A stretch of 62,414 nucleotides of DNA from Chlamydiota bacterium (GTDB lineage: Bacteria; Chlamydiota; Chlamydiia; Chlamydiales; JAAKFR01): the NCBI GenBank assembly GCA_013288105.1, contig JABDCM010000003.1, positions 1 through 62,414 on the forward strand. Reading direction: 5' to 3'. The notes beneath the pieces are model-generated. The model saw only the letters and a program-made list of their open reading frames with translations. It had not been told where the DNA came from and did no database searches. Every line of letters begins with the position of its first letter. The first letter of the stretch is position 1. Positions 32,081 through 32,296 of this stretch are shown piece after piece. Made by a program: the position numbers and the translations under genes.

Positions 32081-32296
32081 ACCTGAGTTTTGGGTTGTCT
32101 TCTTCAAATTCAGGCTATCCTTCACAAGAAACGGGCACGGTAACGGGAGCGGTAACGTTCACGAAAGAGAAAATCTAAGCTGGTTTTAAAAAAAATGCTT
32201 CAAGGGCCTTCTTTCGTGAACGTTACCGCTCCCGTTACCGTGCCCGATTTTCTTCTAATAACCTGAATTTGAGAAAGAAAAACCCAAAATTCAGGT
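32081..32296. mobile_element. Intergenic copy C of the ACCTGA palindromic element (216 bp) with a different interior
   Basis: Units ACCTGAGTTTTGGGTTGTCTTCTTCAAATTCAGGC (32081-32115) and ACCTGAATTTGAGAAAGAAAAACCCAAAATTCAGGT (32261-32296) in inverted orientation. Confidence 0.85.
32132..32246. repeat. Perfect 37-bp inverted repeat with 41-bp loop nested in copy C
   Basis: CGGGCACGGTAACGGGAGCGGTAACGTTCACGAAAGA (32132-32168) and its exact reverse complement (32210-32246). Confidence 0.92.

Follow-up and report, generated by a model that had tools for sequence, protein, structure and literature searches.

The stretch of DNA analysed here, called the window below, is 62,414 nucleotides long and forms contig C3 of a Chlamydiota assembly of 969 kb (45 contigs, 43% GC, 61% complete), to which we refer as the source genome. 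At positions 32081 to 32296 it contains a nested element of 216 bp in which there is no open reading frame of 60 or more amino acids. A gene on the minus strand (32298 to 33215), a host neighbour outside the element, has its stop codon 1 bp away and codes for a class II cAMP phosphodiesterase (PF02112, E 5.6e-44); this agrees with a first-pass annotation that had been made from the letters of the sequence. Two genes of the neighbourhood, recognised by eye from the translated open reading frames, we take to be mreB and pckG. Downstream of the element there is a gene for 381 amino acids (30839 to 31984) with no Pfam match and a weak NCBIfam match. Homologues of the phosphodiesterase were found in 26 of 28 relatives of the family, and in 14 loci that were compared the gene after it differs from genome to genome. 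In one relative, G012, the phosphodiesterase is followed by one other gene and then by a glycosyltransferase gene like that at 29740 to 30858 of the window, a match made by eye on a common motif.

Read on the plus strand, the element follows the pentamer TAATA (32076 to 32080), which is the left target and the commonest pentamer beside ends of this kind; the right flank is TCTAA, overlapped by the phosphodiesterase stop codon, and there is no duplication. The left IS982-type MITE unit occupies 32081 to 32114, its first 16 bp being the terminal inverted repeat. Through a common 7-bp word (32108 to 32114) it is joined to a relic IS66-type end with its spacer (32108 to 32131), of which bases 32108 to 32120 are the end proper. 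Then come the first arm of a four-helix-bundle cassette (32132 to 32168, six 6-bp units and one base), a 41-bp loop (32169 to 32209) in which the start of a leader (about 32170 to 32187) is joined to the last codons of a gene (about 32186 to 32209), and the second arm (32210 to 32246). The spacer of the ancestral cassette (32247 to 32260) ends in a further TAATA (32256 to 32260), the likely insertion site of the right unit. This last unit (32261 to 32296) is of IS982 type, 36 bp long and self-complementary, in length and build like solo micro-elements that have a 5-bp duplication of their own.

The two arms are exact reverse complements over 37 bp, as the first-pass annotation had stated of the inverted repeat between its two ACCTGA units, and over 40 bp if one mismatch is allowed. 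Its description of them as 6-bp periodic and GC-rich in AT-rich surroundings holds as well, with a GC content of 59% in the arms, compared with 34% for the loop and 15% for the left-hand intergenic stretch of 96 bp. On both strands the region is predicted to fold into one long stem (-134.2 and -129.2 kcal/mol, z about -18), as had been proposed, and none of 200 shuffles matched this stability. A search of the whole window against Rfam gave no match to the element and found only a tRNA at 41613 to 41684. We are confident, though short of certain, that the 216-bp structure is a non-coding nest of three layers, with IS982-type ends outermost, a relic IS66 end in the middle and, innermost, the hairpin arms left by a deleted four-helix-bundle cassette.

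The inner cassette and its relatives

The first-pass annotation had allowed for the inner inverted repeat being unique in the genome; the arm search gives 9 sites in the source genome. Eight of them have a loop of 41 to 42 bp and are called mini copies below, and the ninth, on contig C13, has a loop of 179 bp with the 3' half of the coding sequence for a four-helix-bundle protein (PF05635, E 2.2e-4; TIGR02436, E 5.2e-5 at 23.4 bits, just below the cut-off of 24). The C13 fragment is identical in 51 of 64 residues (80%) to a protein of G274, a genome of another family. Arms of the same type flank the C13 gene fragment and the G274 gene halves, and both arms and gene tail align with the window. 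The window loop shows 16 of 18 identities to the G274 leader and 20 of 24 to the tail, that is the last codons, of the gene. An intact four-helix-bundle gene is absent from the window loop, where about 24 bp of gene tail are left, and no whole gene of this kind was found in the source genome (61% complete). By these alignments the interior of the element is a four-helix-bundle (TIGR02436/PF05635) cassette that has been internally deleted, a derivative and not a coding member. The first-pass annotation, which had called the interior unrelated, had overlooked both this origin and the IS66 end.

In the phylum, the four-helix-bundle family is found in 48 of 300 scored genomes at E 1e-4, with 34 above the cut-off. 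Thirty gene loci were fetched, and of the 28 that could be scored, 18 have inverted flanks (local score of at least 20, without a shuffle control), many of them of the same hexamer type. An IS66-type end lies near one of the 30 loci and an IS982 end near none. Transposon ends account for the present subfamily, not for the whole class of cassettes. Other arms, of the CGGGCACG type, belong to a different subfamily; they occur singly at 13633 to 13652 of the window and at L010 (C32:1139), and a pair of CGGGCACG-type arms, again of a different subfamily, surrounds about 200 bp at L009 (C31:504-718).

A search for the element in 41 genomes gave matches in 12, the source genome included. Among the matches listed, 9 relatives have the outer ends only, 2 have the arms only, and none has both; the layers occur apart. 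One relative, G006, has 32 exact arm words against 1 in the control. From it 19 loci were fetched: none has an IS982 end, and the arms are paired in 14, among which 8 have a loop like the gene tail. An IS66-like end agreeing at 10 or more of 13 positions is present at 4 of 17 scored loci (1.2% in shuffled flanks), and a four-helix-bundle gene was not found in this genome, which is 71% complete. At five G006 loci (L149, L154, L159, L164 and L166) one arm is shortened by a common flanking sequence, which points to another repeated element or to an assembly repeat joined to the arm.

IS66 and IS982 ends

In the copies on C4, C10 and C14 the spacer beside the arm runs on as a 13-bp end, and a full IS66 element in the genome G030 (PF03050, E 3e-46) has the identical end on both sides; at C39 and C6 this end differs in one or two bases. 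Two of the three full IS66 elements that were fetched have an 8-bp duplication that agrees at all 8 positions. The window copy retains the last 7 bases of the IS66 end, which are common to the left unit, plus the spacer. Its left junction suggests a deletion between two copies of this 7-bp word, and the identical fused junction of unit and IS66 end is seen again at C6:23379-23405. Two intact IS66 ends are present in no copy of the source genome, and a cassette with two such ends and an 8-bp duplication was found only in the relative G274, by pairing halves on different contigs. There the cassette occurs as four halves on four contigs, two left and two right, which have GTAAC-type ends and whose 8-bp flanks pair exactly, two by two. 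The left halves carry a relic of an IS66 transposase end, 28 to 31 residues long and with 71% identity (E 3e-10 and 5e-10). The halves, cut by contig ends or by other insertions and paired by their flanks alone, would make up whole cassettes in G274.

IS66-type ends also bound elements whose GC-rich interiors are unrelated, at C4:46506-46605, C14:16358-16369, C15:2030-2041 and C2:23804-23815. Three loci from further genomes (L122, L123 and L124, from G037, G311 and G073) are mutually similar palindromes of 55 bp bounded by IS66-type ends, without 8-bp duplications.

For the outer layer, the terminal consensus of the IS982 family is 5'-AC(N6)T(N5)TT, as given in a portion of PMC7335449. Both ends of the window element fit it, and so do both ends of a full IS982 element of 1021 bp in the relative G024 (PF13612, E 1.4e-73), each of which is one base off the 16-bp end in the window. 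The G024 element has no target duplication, and its reading frame is interrupted. By this agreement the outer units are IS982-type ends. A profile search of the source genome with the terminal unit gave 80 matches and 26 inverted pairs within 400 bp, whose interiors vary in kind (among them 95, 163 and 325 bp). Of the 26 pairs, 11 have a perfect 5-bp duplication, where 1.87 are expected and none of 5000 permutations reaches 11. Duplications of 3, 4, 6, 7 and 8 bp are not enriched (1, 0, 0, 0 and 0 pairs), and the count for 2 bp is that of chance. Among solo units of 27 to 37 bp, 4 of 10 have a perfect 5-bp duplication (C1:10596-10622, C13:13846-13881, C28:98-132 and C30:4825-4861), suggesting either transposition of very small units or a collapse of longer MITEs to solo size. 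Before 72 of 109 ends stands TnnnA, in 16 cases as TAATA.

At the level of the family, the elements thus have the ends, the full-length relative and the duplication of an IS982-derived MITE, and they are short, non-coding and present in many copies; the window copy itself has TAATA against TCTAA, which agree at 2 of 5 positions. One proposal of the first-pass annotation, that the terminal units are a mobile module with variable cargo, is borne out by the 26 pairs with their several interiors and 11 duplications, together with a composite on C10 that is described below. Its remark that TAATA precedes both outer units is accurate for the units at 32081 and 32261, but the two do not form a target duplication. 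We tried and rejected them as the duplication of the window copy: the inner TAATA belongs to the family at other sites, and the true flanks are TAATA and TCTAA. The presence of two such pentamers is explained because one is ancestral to the hairpin family and the other is an ordinary target.

Transposases of the IS982 and IS66 families were not found in the source genome (61% complete) by tblastn at E 0.01, and a transposase profile search of the same genome gave a single weak match (E 0.08). An IS66 transposase was likewise found in none of five genomes searched, G274 and G006 included.

Several further observations concern the same MITEs. Elements of 325 bp (for example C4:22277-22601, C7:27690-28014, C13:19277-19601, C15:3242-3566 and C2:41411-41731) hold a different palindrome of about 162 bp, with TATACCC-type ends, at a fixed position inside the 163-bp IS982 MITE, which thus carries a second kind of nested cargo. 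Perfect 5-bp duplications flank these elements at 2 of 4 full-length end sets and at C15. In the window, plain IS982-type MITEs at 10266 to 10428 and 24608 to 24758 lie inside the open reading frames 9914 to 13054 and 23398 to 24942, whose frames are unbroken in the list of open reading frames. An origin from REP or REPIN sequences was considered and dropped after the insertion sequence ends and 5-bp duplications had been found.

Order of the layers and competing explanations

IS982 ends are present on both sides in 3 of the 8 mini copies, namely the window copy and those on C4 and C10. Their flanks agree at 5 of 5 positions on C10, at 4 of 5 on C4 and at 2 of 5 in the window. It is likely that IS982 ends moved the hairpin, and the C10 composite is the best evidence for this. 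Next to one arm, G274 and C15 have a TATTA adjoined by an IS66-type end; six mini copies have an IS982 unit in the position of this IS66-type end, and C39 keeps a trace of one. Since TATTA is a preferred target, the IS982 unit was likely inserted there. The first-pass annotation had offered, as its other possibility, that a second repeat family targets the first. The interior is indeed a second repeat family, but the order is doubtful on the right side, where the TATTA under the outer unit is ancestral to the inner element. For the left side of C4 and C10, entry of the IS66 end into the MITE and arrival of the MITE beside the IS66 end would both fit.

The loop has the same orientation as in G274 in 6 of the 8 mini copies and is flipped in the other 2, the window copy included. 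Private changes are found on both arms at C6, C10 and C13, and the arms are discordant at C4, C14, C15 and C45; template switching between arms would account for both effects. In the contigs of the single public DNA run, which may be the source of this DNA and has no listed RNA counterpart, the element in the window is broken, no empty-site joint is seen and depth varies widely, with values of 156 and 128 in the flanks. The flip in the window copy rests on the assembly.

In our judgement the element is very probably selfish DNA, the gutted remnant of a small four-helix-bundle cassette that likely moved first between IS66 ends and was later likely taken up by IS982 ends, a relay of two transposon families and not a purpose-built RNA switch. 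Transposases that acted from elsewhere likely copied it around the source genome. At the start, a four-helix-bundle gene flanked by inverted arms of 6-bp repeats, as at many related loci, would have become enclosed in IS66 ends, and the cassette, without a transposase of its own, would have moved, as the two 8-bp duplications in G274 indicate. An internal deletion, visible in the sequence identities, would then have left the arms, the start of the leader and the last codons. A 36-bp IS982-type micro-element next likely inserted at TATTA beside one arm, and with a second IS982 end it would have moved the hairpin as a composite MITE, to judge from the duplications at C10 (5 of 5) and C4 (4 of 5). 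The window copy was probably shortened afterwards between two copies of the 7-bp word, and its loop flipped between the arms. This account is weakened because the window copy has no duplication and just 3 of the 8 mini copies are bounded by IS982 on both sides, and also because no transposase of either family was found in the source genome (61% complete), the G024 IS982 element has no duplication and the G274 halves are on separate contigs.

It could instead be supposed that the cassette with its hairpin has its own way of spreading, for example through the four-helix-bundle protein or as a folded single strand, and that the insertion sequence ends come later, into its A+T-rich flanks. This would fit the 29 of 30 four-helix-bundle loci that have no IS66-type end nearby, the C13 arms with neither kind of end, the many arm words of G006 where such ends are mostly one-sided or absent, and the opposite orientation of the unit at C6, a hint that it inserted independently in the same place. 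On the other hand, the 8 mini copies have one common deletion junction and one IS66-side spacer, a perfect 5-bp duplication surrounds all layers of the C10 composite, and the 8-bp flanks of the G274 halves are paired. Because of these three observations we prefer copying driven by transposases for the subfamily of the mini copies, and consider an autonomous mechanism unlikely. We give hardly any weight to the reading that no transposition produced the window copy, and that recombination or an adjacent deletion fused two independent insertions or the assembly fused two copies. The flanks are two valid and different TnnnA pentamers, the loop is flipped and the public contigs break within the element, as such a join would have it, but the gene order in G012 (matched by eye) puts both flanks together and the fused junction of unit and IS66 end recurs on C6. 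A join would change the history of the window copy and not the identity of the layers.

The structure might also be kept because the RNA stem terminates or protects the transcript that ends with the phosphodiesterase gene, or marks it for cleavage by RNase III. The stem predicted on the sense strand is very stable, 6 of the 9 copies end within 3 bp of a stop codon, and three copies have the private changes on both arms mentioned above. An RNase III gene is present in the source genome, and according to a portion of PMC4990558 this enzyme cuts the 28-bp stem of the Coxiella intervening sequence (IVS) in vitro, so cleavage of the predicted stem of the element is plausible by analogy. Against this, neither Rfam nor a terminator scan of 31900 to 32450 on both strands found anything in the element, the scan being one for a short GC-rich stem, a small loop and a U run, which does not cover long stems; its two overlapping matches both fall within the terminal part of the phosphodiesterase gene. 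In 0 of 14 relatives examined do the first 500 bp beyond the phosphodiesterase stop contain arms or IS982 ends, and four copies have discordant arms. The position at the stop codon probably arises because the TnnnA target fits TAA and TAG ends, and matched arms could come from template switching without selection. We therefore regard selection for an RNA function as very unlikely, and an effect on the phosphodiesterase transcript, if there is any, would be a by-product.

Known systems and significance

An IS982-derived MITE, MITECca01 of Cardinium cOegib, is known from a portion of PMC9769881. Like the present elements it has IS982-derived ends and no transposase; it is about 240 bp long, has many intergenic copies and disrupts other mobile elements (PMC9769881, in the same portion). 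Unlike in MITECca01 as described there, the IS982 ends of the window enclose a foreign hairpin with an IS66 end, solo units of 27 to 37 bp also show target duplications, and the source genome, 61% complete, yielded no intact parent (PMC9769881). Mobile insertion cassettes such as MIC231 are similar in that insertion sequence ends without a transposase surround passenger DNA that is moved in trans (PMC6199540, in part), and the IS66-ended G274 cassette with its four-helix-bundle gene fits this build. The cassettes covered by that portion are 700 bp to 3 kb long, whereas the window element is far smaller, has no intact passenger gene and combines the ends of two insertion sequence families (PMC6199540). 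BrickBuilt of Porphyromonas gingivalis, in the portion of PMC4596501 that describes it, is likewise an intergenic MITE with internal tandem repeats; these form a direct 23-nt minisatellite, whereas here there are two inverted hexamer arrays from a gene cassette. A link to repeats of Beggiatoaceae was not borne out: the term 'helix bundle' occurs 0 times in the portion of PMC4679880 that was covered. The likely hand-over of a cassette remnant to IS982 ends is the contribution of the present analysis; MITEs, insertion cassettes and nested insertion sequences are known kinds.

From the Pfam name, S23p and the gene of the four-helix-bundle cassette presumably belong to one protein family. An identity of the element with a 23S rRNA intervening sequence was rejected, as the site is flanked by protein genes. 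The intervening sequence of Coxiella burnetii 23S rRNA is comparable in having its S23p gene in the loop of a long inverted-repeat stem, but the window element lies between protein genes, with no rRNA match in the window, has arms made of hexamer arrays and has lost its gene (PMC4990558, in part). In the literature as far as it was covered, that is main texts without supplements and few of the subscription papers, we were not able to find a description of four-helix-bundle genes between oligomer arms with insertion sequence ends, nor of this chlamydial element.

One may speculate further, with a small but real chance of being right, that hairpin cassettes of the four-helix-bundle kind are selfish passengers and switch from one vehicle to another, the A+T-rich sequence on either side recruiting the ends of whichever insertion sequence is active: IS66, then the 36-bp IS982 micro-element, which is maybe among the smallest transposable units. 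Their arms would match themselves and flip the loop by template switching, and gene-less hairpins beside stop codons would become RNase III sites that reshape mRNA ends genome-wide.

The significance of the finding is moderated by the fit of transposon ends to 1 of 30 gene-bearing cassettes and by the lack of any demonstrated host function. Within this scope, the analysis gives a sequence-level account of how a unit of gene plus hairpin can spread without its own transposase, and the 36-bp unit with a target duplication of its own and the 266-bp C10 composite offer small substrates for a test of mobilisation in trans. The origin of a family of intergenic hexamer hairpins is explained, with the same remnant passing between two transposon families within one lineage.
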